From: Candidatus Nomurabacteria bacterium
GTDB taxonomy: Bacteria; Patescibacteriota; Minisyncoccia; Phycocordibacterales; UBA9973
NCBI GenBank assembly: GCA_016699085.1
Contig: CP064958.1
Coordinates: forward strand, 475,181-539,180
Length of the DNA stretch: 64,000 bases
Reading direction: 5' to 3'
The notes beneath the pieces are model-generated. The model saw nothing but the letters and a program-made list of their open reading frames with translations, was not told the DNA's origin and searched no databases. Of the stretch, positions 556 to 33,964 are shown piece after piece; positions within the stretch are counted from its first letter, which is position 1; each line of letters begins with the position of its first letter. Made by a program: the position numbers and the translations under genes.

Positions 556-591
556 ATTGCAAGGTAGAACTGTATTAGTATATTTACATAT

Positions 592-1473: not shown

Positions 1474-1482
1474 GGATATTGC

Positions 1483-2166: not shown

Positions 2167-2186
2167 TTTTTATTTTTTTAATATAT

Positions 2187-3107
2187 ATGACACTTCTAGA
2201 TATAAAACGTATTATCCGATCTGGCTTCATAAGCTTTTGGCGAAATGGCATTGTCTCTGTCGCATCGCTCCTGGTGACAACGATTACACTTTCAGTTATT
2301 GCAGGACTTATTCTACTCCAAGCCGTGCTACATATTTCGCTTGAGCAAATTGAGAATAAAGTTGATGTGACCATCTACATGACGACAGGTGCAGCTGAAA
2401 ATAAAATTACCGATATTAAGGCCTCACTTGAACAATTACCTGAAGTCAAAACTGTAACCTATGTTTCAGCAACAGAGGCGCTTGATAATTTTAAAAATCG
2501 TCACCAAGATGATTTCTTGACTTTGCAAGCACTCGAAGAATTGGGGCAAAATCCTCTTGGTGCAACACTCAATGTCAAAGCCAAAGACCCTTCGCAATAT
2601 GAAAGTATAGCCAAGTTTCTAGATACAGAACAAGCTAAGCCAGACGCAGGTGGTGTCATTGATAAAATTAATTATCATCAAAACAAGATTGTTATTGACA
2701 GACTCAATTCGATTATTGCAGGCGCTCGAGAATTGGGCTTACTGCTCACGATCGTTTTTGTAGCCATTTCAATTATCATTACCTTTACGACTATTCGGTT
2801 AACGATATACTTTACGCGTGAAGAAATTGGAGTTATGCGACTTGTCGGTGCAGAAAACAAGTATATTCGTGGTCCATTTATGGTTGAGGGTATTTTATAT
2901 GGCACCATTGCCTCAATTTTGACTATAGTAGCGTTTTTGCCACTGACGTATTGGTTGGGAAGGAATATGACTGAGTTTCTCGGTATGAACTTATTTGATT
3001 ATTTCATCCGTAACCTGCTTCAAGTTTTTGCCATTGTCTTAGTTTCTGGTATACTCTTGGGAGCAATTTCAAGTTTTCTAGCAGTTAGAAAGTATTTAAG
3101 AAAATAA
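2187..3107 (+). CDS. ftsX: Cell division permease FtsX
   Basis: Adjacent to ftsE. N-terminal TM, periplasmic domain, three C-terminal TM helices, 306 aa. Confidence 0.75.
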   Translation: MTLLDIKRIIRSGFISFWRNGIVSVASLLVTTITLSVIAGLILLQAVLHISLEQIENKVDVTIYMTTGAAENKITDIKASLEQLPEVKTVTYVSATEALDNFKNRHQDDFLTLQALEELGQNPLGATLNVKAKDPSQYESIAKFLDTEQAKPDAGGVIDKINYHQNKIVIDRLNSIIAGARELGLLLTIVFVAISIIITFTTIRLTIYFTREEIGVMRLVGAENKYIRGPFMVEGILYGTIASILTIVAFLPLTYWLGRNMTEFLGMNLFDYFIRNLLQVFAIVLVSGILLGAISSFLAVRKYLRK

Positions 3108-3119
3108 TCTATTTAGCCT

Positions 3120-4790
3120 ATGCGGAGCAAACAAGCAAAATATATTTTTGTGGTGGGGGGAGTTATATCCGGAGTTGGGAAAGGTGTCACTGCCTCCTCA
3201 ATTGGTAAGATTCTCCAAGACCGCGGGCTTACCGTTACAGCAATAAAGATTGATCCTTACGTTAATGTCGACGCTGGGACTATGAATCCCACCGAGCATG
3301 GTGAGGTTTTTGTTTTACATGATGGTGATGAGACTGATCAAGATATGGGCAACTATGAGCGATTTCTGAATACGACACTTTCGCGTGTTAATTACATGAC
3401 AACAGGGCGAGTATATCAAAGCGTTATTGCACGAGAGCGAAATCTTGAGTATGGAGGCAAATGTGTAGAAGTTGTGCCACATGTGCCAATGGAGATCATT
3501 GCTCGTATTACCGAAGCTTCAAAACAAGCGGATGCTGATGTCACAATCGTAGAAGTAGGCGGCACTGTTGGTGAATATCAAAATGTGCTTTTTCTAGAAG
3601 CAGCACGCATGATGAAAATCAAATACCCAAAAGATGTTGCATTTGTCATGGTCTCGTATTTACCTATACCGTCAAAAGTTGGTGAAATGAAGACAAAACC
3701 GACACAGTATGCGATTAGGACGTTGAATGCTTCTGGAATTTTGCCTGATGTTATTGTTGCGCGTGCAGAAAAACCACTTGATGCAAAACGCAAAGAGAAA
3801 TTGGCATTCTCATGCAATGTGCCTACCGATCATATTATTTCAGCACCTGATGTTGACTCAATATATGATGTGCCGATTAATTTTGAGAAAGAAGGTTTAA
3901 GTACACTCTTTTGCGATATGCTTGATATTGTTTGTCGTAAGCCTGCAATTGATACTGTTAAAAAGTGGAAGAAAATTGTCCAGACTATTCATCATACTAA
4001 AGACGAAGTACACATTGCTATGATTGGGAAATATTTTGATACAGGTGATTTTACACTTTCTGATTCGTATCTTTCCGTAATAGAAGCGATTAAATTTTCT
4101 GCATATGCGGTGGGTAAAAAACCAATTTTAAGCTGGATCAATGCGTTAGATTTTGAAGGTCCAGGTGGCAAAGCCAAGCTCAAGAATCTCAAACATTATG
4201 ATGGGATTATTGTGCCGGGCGGTTTTGGTGCGAGAGGAATCGAAGGGATACTGGCAGCTATTACATTTGCACGTCTAAATGCTATCCCATATTTTGGGCT
4301 TTGTTATGGCATGCAGCTTATGGTTATCGAATATGCACGTAACGTACTAAAGCTAAAAGATGCAACCTCACGGGAAATTAATCCATCAAGCAGACATTTA
4401 GTCATAGACATAATGCCTGAACAAATTGAGAAACTCGCTAAGAAACAGTTTGGCAATACTATGCGGCTTGGAGACTATGATGCTTTACTTGCAAAGGGAA
4501 CGATTGCGCACAAAGCGTATGGTACAGAAAAAATTACTGAACGTCATAGACATCGTTATGAAGTTAGTAGGGAATATATCAATGCTCTTGAAACTGCTGG
4601 TCTTGTATTTTCTGGCACATCACCTGACGGTAAGCTTATGGAGATTGCGGAGCTAAGTACGAAATCACATCCGTTTTTCTTAGGTACACAGTTCCACCCA
4701 GAGTTTCTTGCTCGTCCGCTCTATCCGCATAAACTATTTACTGCATTTATTAAGGCGGCGTATAGTCGTCGGCAGCAAAATAGAAAGTAG
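3120..4790 (+). CDS. pyrG: CTP synthase
   Basis: N-terminal synthetase domain (KYIFVVGGVISGVGKG). C-terminal class I glutamine amidotransferase (GLCYGMQL, HPEF). Confidence 0.95.
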   Translation: MRSKQAKYIFVVGGVISGVGKGVTASSIGKILQDRGLTVTAIKIDPYVNVDAGTMNPTEHGEVFVLHDGDETDQDMGNYERFLNTTLSRVNYMTTGRVYQSVIARERNLEYGGKCVEVVPHVPMEIIARITEASKQADADVTIVEVGGTVGEYQNVLFLEAARMMKIKYPKDVAFVMVSYLPIPSKVGEMKTKPTQYAIRTLNASGILPDVIVARAEKPLDAKRKEKLAFSCNVPTDHIISAPDVDSIYDVPINFEKEGLSTLFCDMLDIVCRKPAIDTVKKWKKIVQTIHHTKDEVHIAMIGKYFDTGDFTLSDSYLSVIEAIKFSAYAVGKKPILSWINALDFEGPGGKAKLKNLKHYDGIIVPGGFGARGIEGILAAITFARLNAIPYFGLCYGMQLMVIEYARNVLKLKDATSREINPSSRHLVIDIMPEQIEKLAKKQFGNTMRLGDYDALLAKGTIAHKAYGTEKITERHRHRYEVSREYINALETAGLVFSGTSPDGKLMEIAELSTKSHPFFLGTQFHPEFLARPLYPHKLFTAFIKAAYSRRQQNRK

Positions 4791-4817
4791 TAGAGTATCG
4801 TAATTTAAGTTTAATTC

Positions 4818-5381
4818 TTATCTAAGGATATAGTATTTTTCCTTGATCCATACAGCAATAAAAGTGCCAATCAATACACTGATCCAAACAAGGAGAATTT
4901 GCTGTAACGCTTCTGCCTCTCGATTCTCTGTTTCTGCTAATGATCGCCCCGCAAGTACATAGCCTGATACTTTCTCAGCAGTAAAAGGTAATACAATAAT
5001 CGCTTCGCGAATACCCACTGTTGGTTCCCAGGTGATACGGTTTTCTCCATGTGTCTTAGTGTATTCAAAGATATCAGAAGGGGGAATCGGCAGTACACCT
5101 TTAATATTCCCTGATCCAACAATTGGTTTGCCTTTGTCATCATAGACAATGACAAACGGTGCAATGCTTGTCTCAAGTGGTATGCTTGTTCCTGCCACAA
5201 ATACATCTGGTTTCGCTCCGTGTTCAAGTGCAAAGACTGTATCTTTTGCGATCTGTATTTGAGGGTCATTAGCACTTTGTCTTAATTGCTGTTGAATAAC
5301 GATATATATACCAGCTAGTATGAGGGTTATACATACAGCAAACGGTAGCCATGAAAGTAGTGTCCTTTTTATTGGTTTCAT
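4818..5381 (-). CDS. Hypothetical membrane-anchored protein
   Basis: 187-aa ORF with an N-terminal TM segment. No recognisable family. Confidence 0.45.
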   Translation of the reverse strand: MKPIKRTLLSWLPFAVCITLILAGIYIVIQQQLRQSANDPQIQIAKDTVFALEHGAKPDVFVAGTSIPLETSIAPFVIVYDDKGKPIVGSGNIKGVLPIPPSDIFEYTKTHGENRITWEPTVGIREAIIVLPFTAEKVSGYVLAGRSLAETENREAEALQQILLVWISVLIGTFIAVWIKEKYYILR

Positions 5382-5405
5382 AAGTACATACTAACGTACT
5401 ATATG

Positions 5406-5459
5406 CATATAGCAAACAAAAATACACCAGTTAACTGGCGTATTTTTGTTTGCTATATG
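5406..5459. repeat. Perfect-arm 27+27-nt palindrome with zero loop and a single A/C mismatch
   Basis: Sequence catatagcaaacaaaaatacaccagtt / aactggcgtatttttgtttgctatatg. It lies between the stop of the small lmo0937-like gene and the start of the 4818..5381 gene. Confidence 0.8.
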
Positions 5460-5469
5460 GAGGGAACAA

Positions 5470-5622
5470 TTATTTTATTGGATTCTCGCCTCGAATGACA
5501 CGAACTAAAAATATGATAACTGCAGCAATTAAAAGGATGTGAATATACCAACCAATGGTGTAGAGACCCACAATACCTAGTAGCCATAAGATTAAAAGAA
5601 TGACCCCGATTGTTATAAGCAT
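5470..5622 (-). CDS. Small membrane protein of the Lmo0937 family (50 aa). Not in the ORF track because it is below 60 aa.
   Basis: Translation MLITIGVILLILWLLGIVGLYTIGWYIHILLIAAVIIFLVRVIRGENPIK. Pattern matches Lmo0937-family peptides. Confidence 0.45.
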   Translation of the reverse strand: MLITIGVILLILWLLGIVGLYTIGWYIHILLIAAVIIFLVRVIRGENPIK

Positions 5623-5654
5623 AATATTATATTTAATTATTTTTTTTAATAAAG

Positions 5655-6047
5655 TTATTTCTTGCTTGATTTCTTTTTCGCCGAACTTGTTGCTTTTACA
5701 CTTTTCTTCACTTTCTTTGCTGATTTGGCAATATGCTGCCAGTCTTCTTTAAGATTTTTGACGTAGGCTGCAAGTTCGCTCTTATCAACAGACTGCGCAG
5801 TTGCGTATGCTTTTGCAGCACCGTCAATTATTTTTTGATAGATTGGTTCACTTACTTCCTGTAAATTTTCTAATTTTTCACCAATTTCGCCTTTCATTTT
5901 GACCATCCAGCTTTTTATCTTCTTTTGGTTTGTCTTGCCACTTGGCCCTAAGAGAAAATAACTTGCAACAGCTAAAGCTGCAACTCCTGCGCCCATAGCG
6001 ATCATCTTACCTCCATTCCCACTAGAAACTTTTGATACTTTTTTCAT
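5655..6047 (-). CDS. YtxH-like general stress protein with a Lys-rich C-terminus
   Basis: N-terminal TM and coiled-coil. Resembles the YtxH family. Adjacent to a DUF948-like gene, as in the ytxG/ytxH arrangement. Confidence 0.5.
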   Translation of the reverse strand: MKKVSKVSSGNGGKMIAMGAGVAALAVASYFLLGPSGKTNQKKIKSWMVKMKGEIGEKLENLQEVSEPIYQKIIDGAAKAYATAQSVDKSELAAYVKNLKEDWQHIAKSAKKVKKSVKATSSAKKKSSKK

Positions 6048-6092
6048 AATAAGCTGTGTTTGTTAAATTGATAATTCAATAAATACTAACGT

Positions 6093-6362
6093 TTAACTTT
6101 CTGTTCCGTGACGTTTCTGTGAAGCCTTCTTACTTCTGTGGAAAAATAATGTGAATACTTTACTCATTCGTATGTCAGTTAGCATGTCTTGTATGTAGGC
6201 ATTAGTTCCGGTTACTTCTTTGGTTAGCATATCGAGTAGCTTGTTTGCTTTCGATACAGTGGCCAATACGTATATGATGCCTATTAAAATAAAAATAGTC
6301 AGTAAAATAACCGAAATTGTGGTTATAAAGAAAAATATATCTGCTTTTACAATTGTTTCCAT
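6093..6362 (-). CDS. DUF948/YtxG-like small membrane protein
   Basis: 89 aa with an N-terminal TM and a helical C-terminus. Synteny with the YtxH-like gene. Confidence 0.4.
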   Translation of the reverse strand: METIVKADIFFFITTISVILLTIFILIGIIYVLATVSKANKLLDMLTKEVTGTNAYIQDMLTDIRMSKVFTLFFHRSKKASQKRHGTES

Positions 6363-6556
6363 GATAAGTATTTTACGGCGAATCTTTACTTCTGTGTCAT
6401 CTTGACTACTCTTTAGTGTACCATGTTTATCTATATGTATAGTTACCGAAAGACTATTTTATATTACGATTCAAAATCAATATTGTGAGTATGAAGACTA
6501 AAATACAATATTGACATATTAAAATATATAGCATAGTCTGAAAGAAAAAACTGAAT

Positions 6557-7438
6557 ATGAAAGCGATATTTTTGTTTGTAGCATCTGTACTCCCTAGGAT
6601 CATCTTTGGGCAAACAGTTGTAGACTTTACTGCTTACTATCCGAGCGCTCATGATGCGTATCGTGGTAATGATAAATTTGTCAAAGCCTCGCTAAGTTCT
6701 TTTATTGACGCAAAAGAATTGGATGAATTGGTAGCTAGAAGAAATACATTTAGTGAAAAAGATTTTTATATTGAATGTATTAAAGCGTATAGCAACCATA
6801 CATTTACCAATAACTTTAGAATTTTACACTATCAAACATTTAAAGATAGTGTACTAAAGTATGCTGCAGTATTAGGATATAGCGAGACAAGTATCAAGAA
6901 ATTATCTATCCATGATCTTGTACTATTATCCGGACTCATTACTTCATCGCGTCTATACTATGATGATCACTATGATCCATCTGTAAGCTTTGAATATTAT
7001 AATAAGTTTTACCCAGATGAACTATTACAGAAGAAGACTGTTGTATGTACTCAGTTTGCATTTTTGAACCTATCGATTTTCTATGTACTCAAAAATCACA
7101 ATGACAATGCAAATGGTACCTATATGTCTGCGTATAGTATTGATTCACATGTGTTTAATAAAGTGATTTCGCTTGATGGAGATGGATTCATTATTTCGTA
7201 TGTTGATCCAGCGCAGTTATATATGTATGAAGTTTCACTACAGACATATCTAAACCCGACTAAAGAAAAAGCGCTACTGGCTACTGCAGGAAATATAGGA
7301 ACAAAAGAAGAGCGAGAGTATGCAGAAAAAGTTAAAATTGAGCGTGAAAAAGCTTACTCAACGCGTACACAAATTGACCACAATCCAAATCTTATGCATA
7401 TGCTTAAAAGTCATACAGCAATAATATTTAAAAAATAA
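6557..7438 (+). CDS. Secreted hypothetical protein, possibly a transglutaminase-like cysteine hydrolase fold
   Basis: Signal peptide. Candidate Cys (VVCTQFAF), His and Asp (DSHVFNKVISLDGDGFIISYVDP) spaced as in the transglutaminase-like core. Confidence 0.4.
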   Translation: MKAIFLFVASVLPRIIFGQTVVDFTAYYPSAHDAYRGNDKFVKASLSSFIDAKELDELVARRNTFSEKDFYIECIKAYSNHTFTNNFRILHYQTFKDSVLKYAAVLGYSETSIKKLSIHDLVLLSGLITSSRLYYDDHYDPSVSFEYYNKFYPDELLQKKTVVCTQFAFLNLSIFYVLKNHNDNANGTYMSAYSIDSHVFNKVISLDGDGFIISYVDPAQLYMYEVSLQTYLNPTKEKALLATAGNIGTKEEREYAEKVKIEREKAYSTRTQIDHNPNLMHMLKSHTAIIFKK

Positions 7439-7560
7439 CAAAAACAAACCCAAGGAAGCTTGGGTTTTATTACTAAATACCAATACACACGGATACTTTG
7501 CACCGCTGCCTGTACAGCGCTCTAGTGTGGTATAATTCATTTGTAGATACTACAGCTATT

Positions 7561-8148
7561 ATGTACACACCTTTTGCTGAGAGAACTCATGAAGAAATGA
7601 AAGATGTGCTTATGTATCCTGAGGCAATAGGGCCTCAGGTTCATTACTATATGATTCGTGGTGGTACTGACAAGACAAATGTTACTATTTTGGAGAATGG
7701 TACCGTTGGTGGTGAATATATTAAAGCCTATGGTCACTACCATGCATATCCATTTATAGAGACCTATACCATAGTCAGCGGTGAGGGTATTTTACTCCTT
7801 CAAACGAGGAAAAAAGATGCACAGGGTAAATTCATCGATGATAGCATTGAATCAATTTCTGCGACATTCGTGGCGGCCGGCGATACGATTAAAATACCAG
7901 AGGACTGTGGGCACTTATTAGTAAATATCGGCTCACACTGGCTTGTTACTATCGATGATAGTCCAGTTAATCTTACAGAGACAAATGCCGTTAAAGCTCC
8001 GAGTCATGCTGATTATGAGCCAATGCGCAGGCTCCGTGGATTTGCTTATTACGTCATTGAAGAAAATGGCAAGCCAATTTTTGTTAAAAACCCAATGTAT
8101 ACAGAGGTACCGCCGATTACTATTTTTTCGAGAAAAGAAACTCATTAA
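7561..8148 (+). CDS. Cupin-type (archaeal-type) glucose-6-phosphate isomerase
   Basis: GHYHAYPFIETYTIVSGEGILLLQT and YVIEENGKPIFVKNPMY align closely with the Pyrococcus/Thermococcus cPGI signatures TKGHFHA..AEVY..GGMLLQT and IVIEENGEVKVVDNPRW. Confidence 0.75.
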   Translation: MYTPFAERTHEEMKDVLMYPEAIGPQVHYYMIRGGTDKTNVTILENGTVGGEYIKAYGHYHAYPFIETYTIVSGEGILLLQTRKKDAQGKFIDDSIESISATFVAAGDTIKIPEDCGHLLVNIGSHWLVTIDDSPVNLTETNAVKAPSHADYEPMRRLRGFAYYVIEENGKPIFVKNPMYTEVPPITIFSRKETH

Positions 8149-8151
8149 TCT

Positions 8152-9636
8152 ATGTTTACAACTACTAAAAAGAAAAAATTGAATATTCTCTTTGTTGGGT
8201 CAGAGGCTGTGCCATTCGTCAAAGTTGGTGGCTTAGCAGAAATATTATCGACATTACCGCTTGCACTTCGTGACTTGGATTATGATGTGCGAGTTATGAT
8301 ACCGAAATATGCAATCATTGATGAAAAAGAGTTTCCAATGGAAACGATTGTTAGTCAGCTAGAAGTACCGAACAAGACAGATGAAGCCATCATCTGCAAT
8401 ATCAAGGAATATGTCAGTGACAATGGCATGGTCAATTACTTTCTTGAGAATCAAGAATTTTTTGAAAAACGTGGCAGTGTGTATGGGTATGATGATGATC
8501 CTTCTAGGTGGGCATTGTTAGCTCGCGGCGCAATAGAATTTGTTCGTACCTATGAGAAGTGGCGCCCAAGCATTATTGTTGCCAATGATTGGCAAGGCGG
8601 ACTCATTCCTAATTATATGCAAGCCGAATATAAAGATGATCCGGTTATGCGAGAAATCGCATCAGTCTTTGTTATTCATAATATTTATTATCAAGGGATA
8701 CTCAACCACAAGCATATTAGCGAATTAGAATATGATGATGGGCAAACAATAATCCCAGCAATTTCTGATCCAGCAATTTGTAAACTTAATTTTATGCGAC
8801 GTGGGATTCGCTATGCGGATGTGATTAATACTGTCTCACCAACCTATGCTCGAGAAATTACAACACCAGAGTATGGGGAACTCCTAGACCCGTTACTCCA
8901 AGAGAGGCGTTCTCGATTGTTCGGTATTTTAAACGGGCTTAATTATGATATTTATAATCCAGAAACGAATCCCTATGTGGAATATCCTTACACTGAGAAA
9001 AATTTATCTGAACGTAAAAAGAATAAGAAAATATTACAACAAAAGTTTAATCTTGATGGTCGTCCTGATGTGTTTGTAGTCGCAATCGTCTCGCGATTGA
9101 CGAAGCAGAAGGGACTTGATCTTGTCCTTGAAACTATTGAGCCGCTTTTAGATAATTACGACTTTCAATTCATTGTGCTTGGTTCTGGTGATTCAAAGTA
9201 CATGTCATTCTTTGAAGAGCTCGATAAGAAATATCCACAAGTTGCAACACATCTCTCTTTTGATACTATTTTGCCCCACAGCATTTATGCAGGAGCAGAT
9301 GCAATTCTAATACCGTCCAAGTTTGAGCCATCTGGATTAACCCAAATGGAAGCGATGCGATATGGTGCAATACCGATTGCAAGAAAAATTGGTGGATTAG
9401 CTGATAGTATTGAAGACTATGATCCAGTAGCAAAATCTGGTACTGGATTCCTATTTGACAAGTATGATCCGTATGCATTTTTTGGTGCATTTATACGAGC
9501 CCACGAGACACACAAACACAAAAATCATTGGCAAGATATTCAGCATCATGCAATGCAAGCGAACTTTTCTTGGGAAAAGTCAGCTCAAGAATATGCCAAG
9601 CTTTTTGAGCGAGCGCGTAATCAATTTAATCAATAA
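8152..9636 (+). CDS. glgA: Glycogen synthase (GT5)
   Basis: N-terminal KVGGLAEI motif (K-x-GGL). 494 aa. Collinear with the GlgA family. Confidence 0.9.
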   Translation: MFTTTKKKKLNILFVGSEAVPFVKVGGLAEILSTLPLALRDLDYDVRVMIPKYAIIDEKEFPMETIVSQLEVPNKTDEAIICNIKEYVSDNGMVNYFLENQEFFEKRGSVYGYDDDPSRWALLARGAIEFVRTYEKWRPSIIVANDWQGGLIPNYMQAEYKDDPVMREIASVFVIHNIYYQGILNHKHISELEYDDGQTIIPAISDPAICKLNFMRRGIRYADVINTVSPTYAREITTPEYGELLDPLLQERRSRLFGILNGLNYDIYNPETNPYVEYPYTEKNLSERKKNKKILQQKFNLDGRPDVFVVAIVSRLTKQKGLDLVLETIEPLLDNYDFQFIVLGSGDSKYMSFFEELDKKYPQVATHLSFDTILPHSIYAGADAILIPSKFEPSGLTQMEAMRYGAIPIARKIGGLADSIEDYDPVAKSGTGFLFDKYDPYAFFGAFIRAHETHKHKNHWQDIQHHAMQANFSWEKSAQEYAKLFERARNQFNQ

Positions 9637-9641
9637 CTACG

Positions 9642-11108
9642 ATGCGCTGGGTAAATTTTCTCCACATTTATCAGCCTGCAAACCAAGCGGCTGATATAGT
9701 GACGCGGGTAGCAAATGAGAGTTATCGTCCTCTTTTAAAAACGCTCAAAGAAAATCCTAATACAAAAATTACGCTTAATATCAATGCTGCACTTTCTGAA
9801 CAGTTTGTCTCTTTGGGATTCCAAGATTTAATTAATGATATTATTTTTGTTGCCACGAGTGGTCAAATCGAATTCACCGGTAGTGCTAAATATCATGCAC
9901 TCTTACCATTTCTGTCAGAGGATGAAATAATTCGCCAAATTACTCTTAATTTTCAAACTAATCAGAAAATTTTCGGTGACGTATACAACCCTAAAGGCTT
10001 TTTTCCTCCAGAAATGGCGTATGCCCCCCTGATTGCTCCAATTGTTGAGAAATTAGGATATACATGGATTCTGATTGATGAGGTCGGCTTCAACGGGCGG
10101 GTTGCTGGAGTTGATACAAACGTTGTCTATACGATTGAGAATACTAAGCTTTCAGTTTTTTTCCGTGAAAGAACATACTCAAATTTAATTATGAGTGCAT
10201 TGGTCCGCCGAGAAGAAGATTTCAAAGACATGGAAGATTTCAAGTCAAAAAACTACTTAGTTACTGGTATGGATGGGGAAACGTTTGGCCATCATCGCCC
10301 AGGGTTACAAAAGCTTTTGACAGGACTTCTGACAACACCGGATTTTGAGCATGTTTTTATAGAAGATCTAATGAGAGACATACCAGCGAGAAAAGTTATC
10401 CAGCCTGTTATTTCCACTTGGGCATCCACTGAAAAAGATATTGAAGAAGGTAATCAATTTTTAACGTGGGATGATCCAAATAACACTATTCATCGAATGC
10501 AGTGGGAACTGCAGCAATTGGCAATTGAAACTGTCAAAAATGAAAATATTGAGGATTCTATGGCCCGTCATTTACTTGATGAAGCTTTAGCCTCGGATCA
10601 TTTTTTCTGGGCATCGGCGAGACCATGGTGGTCACTTGAAGTGATAGAATCAGGAGCCTGGCTATTGCTCGACACGATTAAAAAAACTCAAAATGTAGAA
10701 CGTACGATAAATGCTAAAGCGCTTGAGTTGTACTACGCGATCATAGCTTCGGCATTCAGTTGGCAACGCACAGGACATATTAAGGAAATTTATAAAGAGT
10801 ACCGCGAAATTCCACGAATCCCATTTAAAGATAAAACGGCAGGTGAACCCTGGGTATATGCTGCATTTATTGAGCTTATGAAAATAAAGATCAAAGAAGC
10901 AGTAGTAAAAGAAAATTTTGAGGAAGCAATACTGTGGCGTGATGCGATTTGGAAACTTGAGACAAAGAATGATTTATATGATTCACTGCATGCGGTTGAT
11001 TTACTGCGACAGAAAATTACTAATGGTGATGTGCTTGATATGATTGATAAATATAAACTCGAGTATCAGAGACTCGCGTCCGGGCAGCCTGAGCAGCGAG
11101 GGATTTAA
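9642..11108 (+). CDS. GH57-family glycoside hydrolase, possibly a GH57 glycogen branching enzyme or 4-alpha-glucanotransferase
   Basis: GH57 regions HIYQP (region I), PEMAYAP (region III nucleophile Glu), MDGETFGHH (region IV) and FFWASARPWW (region V). Confidence 0.75.
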   Translation: MRWVNFLHIYQPANQAADIVTRVANESYRPLLKTLKENPNTKITLNINAALSEQFVSLGFQDLINDIIFVATSGQIEFTGSAKYHALLPFLSEDEIIRQITLNFQTNQKIFGDVYNPKGFFPPEMAYAPLIAPIVEKLGYTWILIDEVGFNGRVAGVDTNVVYTIENTKLSVFFRERTYSNLIMSALVRREEDFKDMEDFKSKNYLVTGMDGETFGHHRPGLQKLLTGLLTTPDFEHVFIEDLMRDIPARKVIQPVISTWASTEKDIEEGNQFLTWDDPNNTIHRMQWELQQLAIETVKNENIEDSMARHLLDEALASDHFFWASARPWWSLEVIESGAWLLLDTIKKTQNVERTINAKALELYYAIIASAFSWQRTGHIKEIYKEYREIPRIPFKDKTAGEPWVYAAFIELMKIKIKEAVVKENFEEAILWRDAIWKLETKNDLYDSLHAVDLLRQKITNGDVLDMIDKYKLEYQRLASGQPEQRGI

Positions 11109-11118
11109 ATATATACAT

Positions 11119-12789
11119 ATGAATATCGAAGATTGGTTCGCAAATGTAAAAAATACTGAAGATTACAAAGCATTGGAGAGAAATCCAATTGCATATTTCT
11201 CTGCTGAGTATGCGCTTGATTCTGCGTTGCCCACGTATGCGGGTGGCTTAGGAGTTTTGGCAGGGGATTATATCCACGAAACTGTCTCTCATACTTTCCC
11301 ACTCATTGCCATCGGACTTCGTTACCATAATGCCCAGCATTCAGTTATATCTATGGGTGCTGAAATAGAAGAACATATTGCAGAAGCAAAACTTGTGCCG
11401 CTTATAGATGCCCAAGGAGTGCCAGTAGTTATATCGCTTCCAATTGGAGATCGAATTGTTCATGCAAAAGCTTTTATTTGGAATAACTTCCCACTATATT
11501 TTTTGGATACAAACATAGAAGCAAATCATCCAGATGACCGAAGTATTACACAGGTGCTCTATGTAGAAGATCGTACGCTTCGATTAAAGCAAGAAATTCT
11601 TTTGGGTATAGGTGGCTTTAGATTGTTAAAGCGACTTGGGCATCATCCGTCGGTATATCATCTCAATGAAGGTCACTCAGCGTTTCTTGGACTTGAGCTT
11701 GCCCATCACGAGATGGAGCATCGCCATGTTGATTTTAAAACTGCTTGTGACTATGCCAAAAAACATGTGCTTTTTACCAACCATACGCTTGTGCCTGCTG
11801 GTCAAGAGCAGTTTTCACTCGAGACGGTTACGAGTCTTATGAAAAACTATGCGGAAGAAATCGGCGTGGCGACATATGATATTGCGGAACTTGGTAAAAA
11901 TGGAGATGCGTTCTCAATGACGACTCTTGCGTTTCGACTTTCGAGTAAAGCCAATGCTGTTAGCGTACTCCATGGGCAAAAGGCAAAAATACTCTGGCCT
12001 GAGCACCCTATGGAGGCAATCACCAATGGTATTTATCTTCCACGCTGGGATAAGATAGGGGCAGTTAGTGCAGAAGATATTTTTAAGATTCACCAAACAA
12101 ATAAAACCAAGCTGTTAAAATATATTTTTGATATTACTGGTGAAACCTGGCATGAAGACGAGCTTTTGATTGGCTGGGCGAGACGAACAGTTGATTACAA
12201 ACAGCCACTCGCCTTTTTCTCGGATATCGCGAGACTACAAGAAATTATATCGAAATCTCACAGGTCAGTTAGAATTGTGTTTTCTGGCCCAACTGAAAAT
12301 GGCAATGAAAATGCAAATACATTAGTCGCTATGCTGCGTGCACTCTTTGCCGCTGACCTTAAAGGCATTGCAGTCTTTCTTCCAAATTATAATTTAGACA
12401 TAGCCTCACTGATGACCTCAGGTACGGATATATGGCTCAATACCCCTATGATCGGCTCTGAGGCTTGTGGTACGAGTGGTATGAAGGCACTTTTGAATGG
12501 ATCATTGCCATTATCTACTCGGGATGGCTGGATAGCAGAGGTAGCTATGGAAAATATTGGCTGGATTATAGATGAACCAAATATTGGCAGTAAATTGCTT
12601 GATGTTGTGGAGCAAGAAATTATACCTACCTATTACGCGCATATAAAAAATCAAAATGAGAGTGATTGGATCAAGAGAATGAAAGCCGGCCGAGAATTAA
12701 TACTTGAGAAATTTTCTGCATCCCGGATGCTTAGGGCATATATAGAAGAAGGATACATACCCCTCTTGCATCAGCATCATAAAGAATAA
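11119..12789 (+). CDS. glgP: Alpha-glucan (glycogen/maltodextrin) phosphorylase, GT35
   Basis: FSAEYALDSALPTYAGGLGVLAGDY N-terminal signature and conserved C-terminal PLP-domain layout. The start is placed at MNIEDWF, not at the upstream overlapping Met. Confidence 0.9.
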   Translation: MNIEDWFANVKNTEDYKALERNPIAYFSAEYALDSALPTYAGGLGVLAGDYIHETVSHTFPLIAIGLRYHNAQHSVISMGAEIEEHIAEAKLVPLIDAQGVPVVISLPIGDRIVHAKAFIWNNFPLYFLDTNIEANHPDDRSITQVLYVEDRTLRLKQEILLGIGGFRLLKRLGHHPSVYHLNEGHSAFLGLELAHHEMEHRHVDFKTACDYAKKHVLFTNHTLVPAGQEQFSLETVTSLMKNYAEEIGVATYDIAELGKNGDAFSMTTLAFRLSSKANAVSVLHGQKAKILWPEHPMEAITNGIYLPRWDKIGAVSAEDIFKIHQTNKTKLLKYIFDITGETWHEDELLIGWARRTVDYKQPLAFFSDIARLQEIISKSHRSVRIVFSGPTENGNENANTLVAMLRALFAADLKGIAVFLPNYNLDIASLMTSGTDIWLNTPMIGSEACGTSGMKALLNGSLPLSTRDGWIAEVAMENIGWIIDEPNIGSKLLDVVEQEIIPTYYAHIKNQNESDWIKRMKAGRELILEKFSASRMLRAYIEEGYIPLLHQHHKE

Positions 12790-12790
12790 T

Positions 12791-13540
12791 TTACCCTGTA
12801 AGTATGGACTCAATATAAGCTGCTGTTTCTTCTGGCCCACTGACGGTAACGATTGTTATGCCAAGAGGGATAACAACCGCATCATTACCACCTTCAAAAA
12901 GTGCATCCCCCACATACACAGCTTCTTTAAGGGGTATGTTGGTATATGCAAGAAGCTGCTTGATGCCGTAGGCTTTATCAATACCAGCTTTGGTGACATC
13001 AATCGACGTTGTGCCAGCAACGCTTATTGCATAGTTTGGCAGAAGCTTGGTTAATACTGTAATTATTTGTTTACGCTTGGTATGGTCGGGATCCCACGCT
13101 CTTTTTTGTTCCAGTGCTGCATCAATACCAAGTGCTGAGAAGGTAATTTGTGATCTGCGATCATCAAATAAATTACCTGCAGGGTTGTTTGATTTTCCAA
13201 TGCCGGTTTCTGCAAATGCTTGCTCAAATGCTGTAATAATTTTCTTTTTTTCTATCTCACTTAAAATTTCTTTGTATATTTCTTCCCAGGCCTCCTTATA
13301 GACATAGAAACTACCCCCATCGGTAGGAAGTAAATAAAGATTCGCTAGCTGTTCGTCTGTGCATGATACATGCGTGAGTAATTGTTTTTCAAACTGAACA
13401 AATGATGCACCAGAGGTAACAGCTACTTTCTTTTGTTGTAATAAGCTCGAGAGCAGATGGGCCATGGTTTGACTGATTGGAGTTTTGCTCTTAGAGAGTG
13501 TGTCGTCGAGGTCAAAAATAATAAGTTTTGGCAATGTCAT
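12791..13540 (-). CDS. HAD-superfamily hydrolase (sugar phosphatase-like)
   Basis: N-terminal IIFDLDDTL motif I, 249 aa. Confidence 0.6.
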   Translation of the reverse strand: MTLPKLIIFDLDDTLSKSKTPISQTMAHLLSSLLQQKKVAVTSGASFVQFEKQLLTHVSCTDEQLANLYLLPTDGGSFYVYKEAWEEIYKEILSEIEKKKIITAFEQAFAETGIGKSNNPAGNLFDDRRSQITFSALGIDAALEQKRAWDPDHTKRKQIITVLTKLLPNYAISVAGTTSIDVTKAGIDKAYGIKQLLAYTNIPLKEAVYVGDALFEGGNDAVVIPLGITIVTVSGPEETAAYIESILTG

Positions 13541-13662
13541 ACCACCTAGTATACACAGTTTTGTTGTTTTTTCATTGGCTATAGTAGTTTTCCACTAGTG
13601 TCAAAAGGCAATTAAGGATACAATAAAAGCAAGGAAAGTATTATTACTAATAGTTTTTTATT

Positions 13663-13911
13663 ATGAAATCATTGCATACGGTTACATTTATTCTCCTTAT
13701 TATTGGAGGTCTTAACTGGCTTCTTGTTGGTGTTATTGGTTGGGACGTTGGCCAAGTCTTTGGCGGTCAAGCAGCAATCATCTCACGCATAATTTATATT
13801 CTTGTTGGTCTCTCAGCTGTCTATGAGATCGTGAGTCACAAGAAAAATTGCAAAGAATGTATCGCAAAAGGTCCGGTGGCTCCTAGCGCAATGCCTCCAC
13901 AGAATATGTAA
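13663..13911 (+). CDS. DUF378 family small membrane protein
   Basis: GGLNWLLVGVIGWDVGQVFGG and IIYILVGLSAVYE are hallmarks of DUF378. Confidence 0.6.
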   Translation: MKSLHTVTFILLIIGGLNWLLVGVIGWDVGQVFGGQAAIISRIIYILVGLSAVYEIVSHKKNCKECIAKGPVAPSAMPPQNM

Positions 13912-13953
13912 AAGGTGTTCAATAAAAAATATCCCGCTTACTCGGGATATTTT

Positions 13954-15186
13954 TTATATTTGCTTACCAGCAACATACCCAGTTGTCCAGCATAATTGCA
14001 ACGAATAGCCGCCAGAGGGGCGGTTGATGTGGAGTAGGTCTCCGGTAACATATAGATTTTCAATAATGAGCGACTTCATATGTTTTGTGTCTATCTCAGT
14101 TAGGGGGACACCACCATCAGAGACAACGGCTCGGTCATATCCCATGAGTCCGCTTATAGAAAGTGGTAATGTTTTCAAAAGTTGCACGATATGTTTACGC
14201 ATTGGAACGGTAATACTGTGGACTTTTGTATTCGGATCAATCATCTCTGGTAGAAGCGATAGTATGGCTTCACTCATGCCCTCTGGTGCAATATTTTTGA
14301 AAATATTTTTAAACATTTTGTTTTTATTCGCATCGAACACGGCGATTATTCTAGAGTCAAGTGCGCCATGATCAGTATCGGGGAAGCAATCGATGGTCGC
14401 AGTGACCTTCCCGCCCTCGAGAAAGCCTGAAACTTCACTTGCAGCGTTTAGTATAAGTGGACCAGACAAGCCGAAGTGAGTAAAGAGCACTTTGCCTTTT
14501 TTTGTTAGGATACGCTTGTCGTCAACAAAAAAAGTAATTTTCATAAAATCAATTGACACTCCGGCAAGGGAATGAATCCATTTGTCAGGAACTTTAAGCG
14601 GTACAATAGTAGGTGTTGGTTTGATAATCGTATGGCCAAGTTTTTTCAGAAAACCAAATCCATCACCAGTGGAGCCTGTTTCAGGATGGGATATACCGCC
14701 CGTAGCCAAGATATACTTTGCTGCTTTATACTCTTTACTTTTGACAAAAACACTAGTGATTTGATTGTCCTTGTGTGAAATCCTTGTAATAGGAGAGTTA
14801 GTTAAAATAGTGATATTATTCTTCTTGAGTATTTTTTCGAGCGTGAGATACACATCGAGTGCCCGTTCAGTATGAGGGAATGCACGATTACGAGCTTGAA
14901 CAACAAGTGGCAAACCGTGAGATTCAAAAAATCTAAACGTATCTTTAACACCAAATTGCGAATATGGTGAATAGAGAAATGGCGCTGCTTTGCCATAGTG
15001 AGAGAGAAATTTGTGCACATCATACTCTGCATTAGTGATATTACATCTGCCACCGCCCGAGATTTTCAATTTCTCGCCGAGATTTTTATTCTTTTCAATC
15101 AAGAGTACTCGCTTACCAGATTCTCCAGCTACAGCTGCTGCCATCATGCCCGATGCTCCGCCGCCAACAATAATGACATCGTACAT
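13954..15186 (-). CDS. HI0933/BaiN-like NAD(P)/FAD-dependent flavoprotein
   Basis: MYDVIIVGGGASGMMAA dinucleotide-binding motif. 410 aa. Family-typical GGGRCNITN. Confidence 0.8.
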   Translation of the reverse strand: MYDVIIVGGGASGMMAAAVAGESGKRVLLIEKNKNLGEKLKISGGGRCNITNAEYDVHKFLSHYGKAAPFLYSPYSQFGVKDTFRFFESHGLPLVVQARNRAFPHTERALDVYLTLEKILKKNNITILTNSPITRISHKDNQITSVFVKSKEYKAAKYILATGGISHPETGSTGDGFGFLKKLGHTIIKPTPTIVPLKVPDKWIHSLAGVSIDFMKITFFVDDKRILTKKGKVLFTHFGLSGPLILNAASEVSGFLEGGKVTATIDCFPDTDHGALDSRIIAVFDANKNKMFKNIFKNIAPEGMSEAILSLLPEMIDPNTKVHSITVPMRKHIVQLLKTLPLSISGLMGYDRAVVSDGGVPLTEIDTKHMKSLIIENLYVTGDLLHINRPSGGYSLQLCWTTGYVAGKQI

Positions 15187-15187
15187 A

Positions 15188-15601
15188 TTATTGGATGAGA
15201 GTTAAATCACCATGCACAATAATTGGCTTCATCGCTTCAATTTCAGTTTTATAGAATGCAATATCAGGAATAGGGTTTAAGAGAAATATTTTCTGATTAA
15301 GCACATGGGCAAAGCCGATTTCCATAAGCGTATTGCCACCGATGTAGTTTGCAATGTTGTTTTTATCATAATTAGCTACAAGAACCGCATCCGCTCCTTG
15401 CATTTCACGCCAAAAAACTCTAATAGCATCTTTATTGTTTTTCTGGTCTATTTTGATAACCTCTATCTCTTGGTCAGTTTTACCAATAAAAGGTTGGTGT
15501 AGTTCAGTTATAAAGGCAGTATGGCCAAGTTTAATCAGCTTATCTCTAAGTTCAAGCATTTTCTCTGTATATTGCATGCTGCCAATAATGCCGATTTTCA
15601 T
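15188..15601 (-). CDS. Nucleoside 2-deoxyribosyltransferase-like protein
   Basis: MKIGIIGS N-terminus and GNTLMEIGFAHVLNQKIFLL, resembling the NDT catalytic Glu region. Confidence 0.45.
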   Translation of the reverse strand: MKIGIIGSMQYTEKMLELRDKLIKLGHTAFITELHQPFIGKTDQEIEVIKIDQKNNKDAIRVFWREMQGADAVLVANYDKNNIANYIGGNTLMEIGFAHVLNQKIFLLNPIPDIAFYKTEIEAMKPIIVHGDLTLIQ

Positions 15602-15694
15602 ATAATCTGGATTGTAGCAGAATATTTCGCTTCGCGCTTATATTTTGACAGAATAATTTTTTTGTAGTAAGGTGAAGTAAAATCTTACAAAAAA

Positions 15695-16318
15695 ATGGGA
15701 AAACCAGTTATATTTCTTGATTTTGATGGATTCAAATTCGATACATTAGATGCTCATGTTGAATATCAGAATTACCGGTACGGTATAAATTCTACACGAG
15801 CTGATTATGTCAAAAATCCTTCTCTTGACACAGTTATCAACAAATATTTGTCTCAGGAAAAGCAAGTGACTTCAAGAGATGTGTACGTTGATAGTGTTGA
15901 GAATTTCCTAACATCACTCGACTGGCACAAGAATGTCAAGCCTGTCGATGGAATGTGTGAAGTGATGTCAAAACTTACTCTGAAATACAAACTTGTTACG
16001 GTCACTGCTCGAGAGAAAAATGGGCTAGCAGTTATACAGCACTTTCTCGACACATATATTCCAAACTGTGTGAGTGAGATTCATTGTGTTTGGGAACACG
16101 CTGGAAATGGAATTTTTAATGCACATTCAAAAAGAGATTTTATTAAAAATTACTCTGGCAAGAAAGTCGCTTTCTTGGATGATTCTGATTATGAAATCTT
16201 AGAGTTACAAGATATTATTTTGTCGTACCTTTTTGATCCATTGGGTACACACGACGATAATAAAAAGATATTGCATCGAGTAAGAAGTTGGGAAGAGATC
16301 GGAAAATTGTTCCTTTGA
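15695..16318 (+). CDS. HAD-like 5'(3')-deoxyribonucleotidase (NT5C-like)
   Basis: VIFLDFDGFKFD (DxDGxxxD) at the N-terminus. Size 207 aa. Confidence 0.4.
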   Translation: MGKPVIFLDFDGFKFDTLDAHVEYQNYRYGINSTRADYVKNPSLDTVINKYLSQEKQVTSRDVYVDSVENFLTSLDWHKNVKPVDGMCEVMSKLTLKYKLVTVTAREKNGLAVIQHFLDTYIPNCVSEIHCVWEHAGNGIFNAHSKRDFIKNYSGKKVAFLDDSDYEILELQDIILSYLFDPLGTHDDNKKILHRVRSWEEIGKLFL

Positions 16319-16547
16319 TATAATAGACAGCACTATGTGCTGTTTTTTTATTTGTATTGCATGCAAATACACACTGTGGTATATATAAAGTATGCATTTA
16401 ACGTTTACACAATTTGTTTGGTATCGATGTCTACCCGGAACATGGCTCGGAGTGGATTGTTGTTAATTGTGTAATCTAAATCTATTTACACTAACCCCCT
16501 CCAAGTCATGGAGGGGGTTTTGTTTTGTGTCCCATACATACAACATC

Positions 16548-17597
16548 ATGTTCTTTAAAAAAATAGCTATGCAACAAACAACTAGCAGACCATCATTTCT
16601 TCCGGAAATTGTTAAAACATTCACCGTAGGCAATTGGAAGATACGAACTTTGCCAATAGAAGTACCTATTTATGCATCAGAAAAAAGCCAATTGGAGTCA
16701 CTTGCTAATCAGTGGCCAGCATGCTTTAACTCGAAGCATGCAAATTGGATGACTGACGTATTTGGGGTGCCAAGTGTCGTTATTCGGATTGATTATACGG
16801 TTAGCTTTGAGGGTAAGGTTAATGTATACGAAATCGAAGACAGACCGGCAGGATTTGAAATCGATGCACTAGCATCAGCTAAGGCCTTCCAAGCTTTTGT
16901 GGAAACACTAAAGAATATATGCGAATATACTAATAAGCCACTCGGTATCTGTGTTTCTCGAGGTCGTATGTTTAATTCTGATGATTTCTACTGGGCACAG
17001 AGACTCAAGGATTTTGGTGGTATACGAATGGTTTTTGGGGAAGTCCCAACAAATCCAGAAGATGCAATTTGGTTTGTACGGACACTTCGAGATGAAAAAG
17101 AGTACTATGCATTGTCTCCGTATTCACTTACAACTATCAAGTATGAGGGTGATAAATCATATGGTATTGCTTTAAAGTTATGGAAACCTCTAAAATATAT
17201 AGTTGGTGGCATGGATTCTTTTGAGGGGATATATGAATTCAAAAGAACTATAGAAATTCCTTGGAGTAAACCTTTTGTGGTTAAACCTGGATTTGGCTGC
17301 CGTTGTGAAAATGTACACCTGTATCATCCCAAGAGACCAAGTAACGGATTCTCGACGAAGACAAAAATTGAGAAGGCTATAGCAAACAATGAAGTTCATT
17401 ATATTCAGGAGTACTACGAACCAGAGTCGCCGGCATTTCTACCAACTGAATACGCTATGATTCGTAGATGTTACTTAGTGTTTGACATAGCGAGTAAAGC
17501 ATACAAAGTGATTGGTGGCCAATGGGAAGCAAGACCCAACTGCCATAAAATTCATGGTGCCTCTGATGCTGTTTGTGGGCCACTTGTTGTTACATAG
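16548..17597 (+). CDS. ATP-grasp-like ligase, uncharacterised
   Basis: VVKPGFGCRCENVHLY and HYIQEYYEPES resemble ATP-grasp nucleotide-binding motifs. The ORF-track start at 16467 would place a terminator hairpin (16493..16527) inside the coding region, so the start is moved to MFFKK. Confidence 0.4.
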   Translation: MFFKKIAMQQTTSRPSFLPEIVKTFTVGNWKIRTLPIEVPIYASEKSQLESLANQWPACFNSKHANWMTDVFGVPSVVIRIDYTVSFEGKVNVYEIEDRPAGFEIDALASAKAFQAFVETLKNICEYTNKPLGICVSRGRMFNSDDFYWAQRLKDFGGIRMVFGEVPTNPEDAIWFVRTLRDEKEYYALSPYSLTTIKYEGDKSYGIALKLWKPLKYIVGGMDSFEGIYEFKRTIEIPWSKPFVVKPGFGCRCENVHLYHPKRPSNGFSTKTKIEKAIANNEVHYIQEYYEPESPAFLPTEYAMIRRCYLVFDIASKAYKVIGGQWEARPNCHKIHGASDAVCGPLVVT

Positions 17598-17648
17598 AAT
17601 TTAAAAGCACGGATTTCATATCCGTGCTTTTTTGCTATACTCAAATCT

Positions 17649-20170: not shown

Positions 20171-20193
20171 CTCTATTGCTTTTATATTCAGGG

Positions 20194-20264
20194 CTGCGGG
20201 ACTTGGACTCGAACCAAGATACACGGTTCCAGAAACCGTAGTCCTACCATTAGACGATCCCGCA
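20194..20264 (-). tRNA. tRNA-Gln (anticodon CUG)
   Basis: Manual fold. Acceptor UGCGGGA/UCCCGCA (U1-A72, G73 discriminator, as for Gln identity). D-loop AAUGGUA, anticodon stem ACGGU/ACCGU, anticodon loop UUCUGGA, T-loop UUCGAGU. 71 nt with no encoded CCA. Confidence 0.85.
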
Positions 20265-20356
20265 ATAGGTCAACCATACAGGAAAAGAGGCTTTTTTTCA
20301 AGAAAATAAAAAGCCCACATAATAATGGGCTGGTAAATTTGTCTCTACTTGTAATG

Positions 20357-33748: not shown

Positions 33749-33964
33749 ATCTCCACTCTTCAGTAAGAAGGGTATCTAACAGATTATGCCTATGAAAAAC
33801 TAAACTTTTTATTTTGTAAACAAGTAAAGTTCATATATGCGCCTGTTAGACGCTTTTTTCTTTGAAAATTTAAACATCAATGTAATGTGAATTAAAGTCA
33901 GTAAGTAAAGTAATCTGAGTCAAGAAAATGTATTTTTTCTTTTGTTTCGTTCTATTTTTTAAGT

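Follow-up and report, generated by a model that had tools for sequence, protein, structure and literature searches.

The central metabolism of candidate phyla radiation (CPR) bacteria is pared-down and patchy, and entry to and exit from the hexose-phosphate pool are a live question for these organisms. Cupin-type phosphoglucose isomerases (cPGIs) have been characterised from Thermococcales, and bacterial cupin enzymes were reportedly characterised as well, by Hansen et al. in 2005 (as cited in PMC7304191). In the relevant passages of Jaffe et al. 2020 (BMC Biol 18:69, PMC7304191), phosphoglucose isomerases (PGIs) of the PF06560 family are scattered across CPR, form a sibling clade to archaeal references, and belong to a set of enzymes of which more than one type is carried by about 2% of genomes. 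For glucan storage, the classical arrangement is the glgBXCAP operon of the GlgC-GlgA pathway, and amylase-like GH57 proteins have been proposed as the missing branching enzyme in archaea without a classical one (PMC11046441). Here we describe a 64,000-nucleotide stretch of DNA (hereafter referred to as the window) from Candidatus Nomurabacteria bacterium (assembly GCA_016699085.1, contig CP064958.1, positions 475,181 to 539,180 of the forward strand), in which a predicted cPGI gene is followed by genes for a glycogen synthase (GlgA), a GH57 enzyme and an alpha-glucan phosphorylase, and by a convergent HAD-IIB gene (Table 1). The sequences of these five genes make it probable that the region is a compact module for alpha-glucan storage and turnover, linking fructose-6-phosphate (F6P), glucose-6-phosphate (G6P), glucose-1-phosphate (G1P) and alpha-glucan.

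The cupin protein scored 66.1 bits on the Pfam model PF06560 (GPI; gathering cut-off, 20.7), which was its sole Pfam match at E<0.01; no mannose-6-phosphate isomerase (PMI) profile of Pfam was matched at this threshold, and no NCBIfam model matched the protein. All significant sequence matches in PDB, obtained with either the single sequence or a profile, were cPGIs of Pyrococcus furiosus and Thermococcus litoralis or an engineered derivative, the one further match being a flagellin below the threshold (E=0.51). We then compared an AlphaFold2 model of the protein (pLDDT 84, pTM 0.82) with solved structures using Foldseek. Ranks 1-12 were all cPGI-based (11 entries from P. furiosus or T. litoralis, natural or mutant, plus an engineered derivative), with E values of 7e-11 to 2.5e-9, TM scores of 0.56-0.62 and about 24% identity. 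The next match, a quercetinase, had an E value of 1.8e-5 and a TM score of 0.33, leaving a gap of five logs between the cPGIs and other cupins. These results support the membership in the cPGI family that an initial annotation of the window had proposed, and the signature segments on which it had relied do align with the P. furiosus enzyme (GHYHAY..ETY with GHFHAK..AEVY, ILLLQT with GMLLQT, and YVIEENGKPIFVKNP with IVIEENGEVKVVDNP). The competing assignment that it had named, to PMI or to another cupin family without the PGI metal site, was rejected, as no such family was matched in Pfam, the fold search separated the cPGIs from other cupins, and the metal ligands are kept.

The metal ligands of the P. 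furiosus enzyme (PfPGI), H88, H90, E97 and H136, align with H59, H61, E67 and H118 of the window protein, all four of which are invariant in 79 CPR sequences. The same is true of the residues aligned with T71, Y99, N140 and Y160 of PfPGI. Beyond the metal ligands, we take the substrate contacts of PfPGI to be Thr71, Thr85, Tyr99, Tyr152, His158 and Tyr160. An invariant histidine (H149) of the CPR proteins lies at or beside the position of His158, with the alignments setting A150 opposite that residue (GH-A-DY versus GHDY).

We surveyed the genomic context of the cupin gene at 80 GTDB loci, which were searched with the window proteins up to 10 kb on either side and in which the neighbouring open reading frames (ORFs) were clustered. 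Glycogen genes stood beside the cupin gene in 29 of the 80 loci. All three of glgA, the GH57 gene and the phosphorylase gene were present in 26 of these 29, mostly in the gene order of the window, and glgA was kept in 28. The complete clusters also contained the HAD-IIB gene in 16 of 26 cases, either convergent at the 3′ end, as in the window, or co-directional and directly upstream of the cupin gene. Among GTDB species genomes, the nearest (L006) has all five genes, with identities of 90-99%, and each of the five proteins has its closest relatives in metagenome-assembled genomes (MAGs) of Patescibacteria/CPR; the "Saccharibacteria" and "Gammaproteobacteria" labels on several third-party annotation (TPA) assemblies were not relied on.

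A second setting was found in about 20 other loci, mostly labelled Daviesbacteria, where the cupin gene is accompanied by genes for glucose-6-phosphate dehydrogenase (G6PD; 19 loci), a 6-phosphogluconate dehydrogenase (6PGD)-like protein (20 loci) and a ROK kinase (16 loci), and in some cases also for transaldolase or transketolase. Loci of this Daviesbacteria type include L009, L015, L016, L019, L030-L032, L035, L036, L052, L054, L055, L065, L070, L072, L084 and L085. The arrangement looks like an oxidative pentose-phosphate cluster, with glycogen genes not nearby. The glycogen and G6PD contexts never coincided in the 80 loci, and in the cupin tree they fall into different clades. Since both are centred on G6P, they provide the strongest indirect support for PGI activity and argue against a role in mannose metabolism. 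A second small cupin of 141 residues adjoins the cPGI in 10 non-glycogen loci, including L026 (5830..6255).

The HAD-IIB gene is on the opposite strand, as initially annotated, and its description there as a phosphatase gene was not supported. Its product matched the atypical Lactococcus lactis alpha-phosphoglucomutase (PDB 4BND), known as PgmH (Neves et al. 2006 J Biol Chem 281:36864, as cited in PMC8576529), at 144 bits (E=5e-41) and 34% identity over residues 3-247 of 249, and its DxD motif, FDLDDTL, aligns with the catalytic FDIDNTL of 4BND. It also matched the phosphomannomutase (PMM) family PF03332 over its full length (E=4e-9), and the PMMs in PDB scored 65 bits or less against it (human PMM2, E~1e-10). 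The gene is a syntenic member of the glycogen cluster. Four loci without it (L007, L021, L027 and L063) have a classical alpha-D-phosphohexomutase gene directly upstream of the cupin gene, and the two genes occur together in no glycogen cluster. This in-place swap supports a role as a G6P/G1P mutase. NCBI labels the family "HAD-IIB family hydrolase", whereas JGI calls it "phosphomannomutase"; PgmH-like proteins of about 50% identity are spread over CPR, DPANN archaea, Firmicutes and others. The full-length match to 4BND and the substitution by a phosphohexomutase favour a mutase over a HAD phosphatase, and the product is most likely, as judged from these comparisons, a PgmH-type alpha-phosphoglucomutase that forms part of the cluster.

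Pfam and NCBIfam profiles showed that the GlgA, GH57 and phosphorylase genes had been assigned correctly from the outset. GlgA scored 494 bits on TIGR02095 (cut-off, 328) and 218 bits on PF08323, and its translation features the KxGGL motif (VKVGGLAE); its sequence is that of an ordinary bacterial enzyme of the ADP-glucose type in family GT5. The phosphorylase scored 433 bits on TIGR02094 (cut-off, 191.7) and 245 bits against an alpha-glucan family phosphorylase in PDB, and it keeps the pyridoxal phosphate-binding lysine motif (EACGTSGMK in the translation). On NF041129, a model of maltodextrin phosphorylases of Thermococcales, it reached 339 bits, under the cut-off of that model. With 556 residues the protein is unusually short in comparison with solved relatives of 852-872 residues.

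The GH57 protein matched PF03065 at 112 bits, its further Pfam match being a weak UVR motif alone. All five conserved sequence regions (CSRs) of the family were found, namely regions I, III, IV and V, as noted initially, and also region II (GQIEFT). The protein has the glutamate nucleophile (E124, in CSR-3), the aspartate acid/base (D211, in CSR-4) and the (beta/alpha)7 fold that define GH57, and both catalytic residues are invariant among its homologues. Its AlphaFold2 model (pLDDT 86) matched every solved GH57 structure about equally, so that the fold alone does not fix the specificity. The best match in both the sequence-profile search and Foldseek was the 4-alpha-glucanotransferase of T. 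litoralis (1K1W), the only structure with a contiguous profile alignment from CSR-1 to CSR-4, in which just the catalytic domain aligns. The two catalytic residues are 87 residues apart in the window protein and 91 in the T. litoralis enzyme. In the GH57 branching enzymes of Thermus and Thermococcus, this spacing is roughly 170 residues. The beta5-beta6 strands and the flexible loop that have been tied to branching in GH57 (PMC9291813) thus have no room within the 87-residue spacing. Profile alignment to the structures of glycogen branching enzymes (GBEs) was limited to residues 61-130, the NCBIfam GBE models gave 22-24 bits against cut-offs of 920-1000, and no DUF1957 region was detected by Pfam.

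We also compared the sequence fingerprint of the protein with those of the established GH57 subfamilies (Martinovicova & Janecek 2018), in which GBEs have Leu at position 23 and Phe followed by a non-aromatic residue at positions 35-36, and 4-alpha-glucanotransferases have Lys at logo position 23. The corresponding residues of the window protein are His (position 1), Phe (12), Thr (23) and Phe-Trp (35-36), a combination that matches no subfamily in that study. A canonical GH57 branching enzyme was rejected in view of the fingerprint, the Glu-to-Asp spacing and the absence of a GBE-specific profile match. Membership in the 4-alpha-glucanotransferase subfamily, whose enzymes have about 620-670 residues and a C-terminal beta-sandwich, was likewise rejected, as the window protein has Thr at position 23, a length of 488 residues and an all-helical C-terminus. 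Its C-terminal extension (10824..11108, residues ~395-488) is strongly conserved and contains RIPFKD, a UVR-like helical hairpin (ENFEEAILWRDAIWKLETKNDIYD) at residues ~410-440 and an invariant terminal GQPE[QL]R peptide that was modelled at low confidence; this tail may be an interaction motif. NCBI labels members of the family "UvrB/UvrC motif-containing protein" or "hypothetical". From these features of its sequence we conclude that the GH57 protein is an active enzyme of a clade outside the established subfamilies. A more far-reaching proposal, which we put forward tentatively and consider rather doubtful, is that it has a new specificity and would be the only enzyme for branching, or for an equivalent step, in a minimal glycogen system that has no linked glgB or glgC and is conserved across Paceibacteria-type CPR. 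It would then be a counterpart of the missing branching enzyme proposed for archaea (PMC11046441), and its conserved tail could anchor it to GlgA or the phosphorylase.

The direct basis of the storage and turnover module consists of the family memberships, the conservation of catalytic residues, the operon-like spacing of the genes and their recurrent synteny in CPR. In the module as we envisage it, the cPGI would interconvert F6P and G6P with a metal held by its His-His-Glu-His ligands, the PgmH-type mutase would interconvert G6P and G1P, and an unlinked enzyme encoded elsewhere would convert G1P to a nucleoside diphosphate (NDP)-glucose. GlgA would extend alpha-1,4-glucan from the sugar nucleotide, the GH57 enzyme would remodel the glucan by branching or chain transfer, and the GT35 phosphorylase would give glucose units back as G1P. 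The module would join glycolysis/gluconeogenesis at F6P to a glucan reserve. Its substrates, its direction of flux, the GH57 reaction and the source of the sugar nucleotide are those that we infer from the enzymes present.

We submitted 36 window proteins to Pfam and consulted the JGI gene calls covering positions 1..18148. Neither set included a conventional PGI, a classical phosphoglucomutase (PGM), an NTP-transferase or NDP-sugar pyrophosphorylase, or a GH13 protein such as a branching enzyme. A conventional pgi gene, whose absence from the genome the initial annotation had proposed to check, was therefore not found in the window by either set. The motif GGxGTR[LFM] occurred in no reading frame of the window and in none of the ORFs within 6 kb of the cupin gene in the 80 loci. 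The presence of GlgC and GlgB with or near glgA, which marks the classical GlgC-GlgA pathway, was thus not observed in the window.

Several observations weigh against the storage module. Neither the window nor the 6 kb around the cupin gene in the 80 loci yielded a signature of an NDP-glucose pyrophosphorylase, so that the synthetic branch is incomplete as encoded locally, and as the GH57 protein is devoid of the architecture of branching enzymes, a branched product is not assured. In the cupin protein, the position of PfPGI T85 is occupied by Ala (T, A or S across the CPR clade) and that of Y152 by a Ser that is invariant in the CPR cupins; the low identity to characterised cPGIs, given above, is accompanied by two insertions and a shorter N-terminus. 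Furthermore, pairwise identities of the cupin and of its neighbours were weakly correlated across loci (Spearman 0.08-0.38), the correlation being strong solely for glgA-glgP (rho 0.75). The weak correlation of the cupin is compatible with saturation, given how small and conserved this protein is, and does not decide the matter.

A serious alternative, which overlaps with the storage module and which we regard as less likely, is that the cluster is mainly catabolic and constitutes a maltodextrin pathway like that of Thermococcus, acting on scavenged alpha-glucans. In that case the GH57 enzyme would be a 4-alpha-glucanotransferase carrying out disproportionation of maltodextrins, a maltodextrin phosphorylase would yield G1P, the HAD mutase would convert it to G6P and the cupin enzyme to F6P, leaving GlgA with a minor or buffering role. 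The match of the GH57 protein to 1K1W, with its contiguous alignment and similar spacing of catalytic residues (91 versus 87), is in favour of such a route, together with the 339 bits of the phosphorylase on the Thermococcales model and the failure to find a linked glgC or glgB. According to the pertinent passages of Jaffe et al. (PMC7304191), many CPR bacteria are without hexokinase, and phosphorolysis would let them reach G6P without spending ATP. The retention of glgA in nearly all glycogen-context loci (28 of 29) argues against the catabolic route.

The distribution of the cPGI bears on the origin of the module. A word-indexed search returned 1881 database relatives of the cupin protein, the 120 listed being 58-65% identical to it except for one 99% match, and a scan of one genome per GTDB species detected a relative in 427 genomes. 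Among the 80 GTDB genomes listed, all informatively named MAGs were Patescibacteria, of both the Microgenomates type (Daviesbacteria) and the Parcubacteria type (Paceibacterota, Nomurabacteria and Taylorbacteria). The initial description of cPGIs as rare in bacteria is at odds with these numbers and with the occurrence in CPR already described in passages of PMC7304191; the cupin PGI as such is known and ordinary in the CPR lineage.

In a neighbour-joining tree the CPR cupins formed one tight clade, which a long branch separates from the archaeal enzyme; the window cupin grouped with Paceibacterota- and Nomurabacteria-labelled MAGs, and the subclades followed genomic context and lineage. The tree, a phylogeny of the kind that the initial annotation had suggested as a check, returned a monophyletic CPR clade distant from PfPGI; built by simple neighbour joining with one archaeal fragment as the outgroup, it cannot place the root of the family. 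After clustering of a library at 50% identity, two full-length sequences represented the core CPR clade, below which lay tiers of uncultivated relatives scoring 75-130 bits on the CPR profile, against 43 bits for PfPGI. The two second-tier relatives of the cupin PGI that were examined (loci L086-L088; ~115-127 bits on the CPR profile) are on contigs rich in short unannotated genes. The longer of these contigs have GH1 glycosidase genes within a few kb, and the relative in L087 and L088 also adjoins a ROK kinase gene, which hints at further sugar-entry contexts for the cupin family.

These data make it improbable that the cupin PGI, together with the GH57 protein, was recently acquired by horizontal transfer from archaea as part of a partly archaeal storage-glucan island. 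The idea draws on Thermococcales as the source of the nearest characterised relatives of the cupin and, loosely, of the GH57 protein and the phosphorylase, on the sister position of CPR cupins to archaeal references in passages of Jaffe et al. (PMC7304191), and on the PgmH-like proteins shared with DPANN archaea at about 50% identity. The likeness to Thermococcales enzymes is due to the choice of relatives that happen to be characterised, and is not evidence of origin. The cupin is only ~24% identical to the archaeal cPGI and belongs to a CPR clade whose long branch and whose subclades, tracking context and lineage, are against a recent transfer; so are its presence in 427 species genomes, with named MAGs of both types among those listed, and the scores of uncultivated relatives well over that of PfPGI. 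The GC content of the cluster region (0.34-0.41) is in line with the rest of the window (~39% throughout), no tRNA gene flanks the cluster (the sole tRNA of the window is far away, at 20191..20265), and the Pfam matches of the flanking genes include no integrase or transposase. With no compositional anomaly and the sole tRNA distant, we rejected a foreign island or recent transfer. As GlgA is of the bacterial type and the PgmH-like family is widespread, the initial suggestion of a partly archaeal-derived module is not supported. The pattern fits long residence of the cupin PGI in CPR and is not decisive on a very ancient transfer.

Least probable of all, in our estimate very improbable, is that the cupin protein is a PMI or a bifunctional PGI/PMI and the HAD protein a PMM, feeding GDP-mannose beside incidental glycogen neighbours: the matches of the HAD protein to PF03332 and human PMM2, the name phosphomannomutase given by JGI to many of its homologues and the many cupins among sugar-phosphate isomerases are outweighed by the lack of a PMI profile match at E<0.01, the five-log gap between cPGIs and other cupins, the 144 bits to the L. 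lactis enzyme versus at most 65 bits to any PMM, the location of the cupin gene beside glycogen genes or G6PD/6PGD genes, both G6P contexts, the absence of a mannose-pathway gene from the 25 largest recurrent neighbour clusters and the separate small cupin beside the cPGI in 10 loci.

The genes of the cluster are closely packed, with intergenic gaps of 3, 5 and 10 nt within the plus-strand genes and 1 nt between the convergent stop codons, and the positions and strands of all five ORFs were as first annotated. The ORF start at TTG 7498 is an over-extension of the cupin gene, since 29 of 29 homologues (alignment A1) begin at ATG 7561; the gene call on a 99%-identical JGI contig likewise places the start there, and it starts the phosphorylase at ATG 11119, not at TTG 11044. 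The G+C-rich hairpin upstream of the cluster is terminator-like and would mark a new transcription unit after the upstream gene. The extended -10 element noticed initially is indeed present (TGGTATAAT) and is a plausible promoter of the cupin cluster. Exact copies of the motif TGNTATAAT in the window numbered six versus 5.0 expected (7528, 16316, 20774(-), 23565(-), 50076 and 52475(-)), a count not above chance. All six lie ~7-150 nt 5′ of an ORF start on the same strand, a placement suggestive of extended -10 promoters that work in this genome without a -35 box. Sigma-70 promoter-like sites were not enriched in the window (19 versus 19.9 expected). No terminator-like hairpin was detected at the phosphorylase/HAD junction (12789/12791); with convergent stops 1 nt apart, transcripts would run antisense into the opposite gene.

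Table 1. Features of the glucan cluster and its upstream region (window coordinates)
Feature	Position	Strand	Length or remark
Upstream gene	6557..7438		precedes the hairpin and the cluster
G+C-rich hairpin with T/A runs on both sides	7446..7467	none	9-bp stem AAACCCAAG/CTTGGGTTT
Extended -10 promoter-like element TGGTATAAT	7528..7536	+	24 nt 5′ of ATG 7561
Cupin-type phosphoglucose isomerase (cPGI, PF06560), CPR clade	7561..8148	+	195 aa
Glycogen/starch synthase GlgA (GT5, ADP-glucose type)	8152..9636	+	494 aa
GH57 enzyme, CPR subfamily outside the established ones	9642..11108	+	488 aa
Alpha-glucan phosphorylase (GT35, TIGR02094 type), short	11119..12789	+	556 aa
HAD-IIB PgmH-type alpha-phosphoglucomutase (predicted), convergent with the operon	12791..13540	-	249 aa

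Elsewhere in the window, many short genes have no Pfam match. A bacterial 16S rRNA gene is located at 33958..35597 (+); at 1640 nt versus a model of 1533 positions, it contains insertions of ~100 nt. It is followed within the window by no 23S rRNA gene, the next ORF being at 35870..36493, which indicates that the rRNA genes are unlinked; the near-identical JGI contig appears, by coordinate arithmetic, to end close to the 16S gene. The ribonucleotide reductase encoded at 36736..39057 (+; 773 aa) has clear ATP-cone and alpha domains and a weak, fragmentary match to the catalytic barrel (26 bits over residues 467-537), and the gene may be divergent or interrupted. The gene at 46139..48322 (-; 727 aa) encodes a protein in which a sulfatase domain is joined with fibronectin-III repeats and with a Por_Secre_tail (type IX secretion C-terminal sorting domain, 31 bits). 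This tail, a typical Bacteroidota feature, was not expected in a Patescibacteria-like genome and could reflect gene transfer or a chimera of assembly or binning.

The cupin PGI in CPR is not an oddity; it is lineage-wide and strongly conserved, and it occurs in two settings, connected with a glucan reserve or with the oxidative pentose-phosphate pathway. Three steps of the glucan operon (PGI, PGM and glucan remodelling) would be taken by non-canonical analogues. With the standard labels "HAD-IIB hydrolase" and "UvrB/UvrC motif-containing protein", metabolic reconstructions from canonical markers would score the PGM and the glucan-remodelling enzyme as lacking. For a new alpha-glucan-active specificity, the GH57 clade offers a concrete candidate. 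The conserved five-gene composition, the new reading of the supposed phosphatase as a mutase, the two mutually exclusive contexts of the cupin gene and the GH57 clade outside the known subfamilies go beyond the literature searched.

Compared with known systems, the cluster shares with the classical glgBXCAP operon (PMC11046441) the joint encoding of a GT5 GlgA and a GT35 phosphorylase, whereas it has no linked glgC, GH13 glgB or glgX and instead has a cupin PGI, a HAD-type PGM and a GH57 enzyme. The window HAD protein and L. lactis PgmH (4BND) belong to the same HAD-IIB fold family, with 34% identity over the full length and the DxD motif in common; in contrast to PgmH, the window protein is encoded beside glycogen genes and was identified from its sequence. 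Known GH57 proteins (1K1W; the GBEs 3N8T, 3P0B and 5WU7; AmyC 2B5D; the Aquifex aeolicus amylopullulanase 9JLR) are 14-21% identical to the window protein and have in common with it the (beta/alpha)7 barrel with a helical domain, the five CSRs, the Glu nucleophile and the Asp acid/base, whereas the UVR-like C-terminal hairpin, unique to the window protein in this comparison, and the invariant GQPEQR tail set it apart.

The Thermococcales cPGIs (P. furiosus, PDB 1QXR/1X82; T. litoralis, 1J3P) have the same PF06560 domain and the same cupin fold as the window protein, including the His-His-Glu-His tetrad, the GHxH...ExY core, the LLQT strand and the C-terminal IEENG..V.NP strand. The window protein differs from them in an N-terminus ~30 residues shorter, in an extra 12 residues after the LLQ strand and an extra 9-10 residues before the HADY motif, and in its host, a low-GC CPR bacterium of the mesophilic type in which the gene lies within a glycogen operon. 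It belongs to the CPR group of PF06560 proteins reported in the passages of Jaffe et al. 2020 (PMC7304191) cited above. Those passages are without genomic contexts, and the word "glycogen" occurs 0 times in the text; to the group they describe, our analysis adds the two exclusive contexts, glycogen versus oxidative pentose-phosphate, and the linkage to a predicted PgmH-type mutase.

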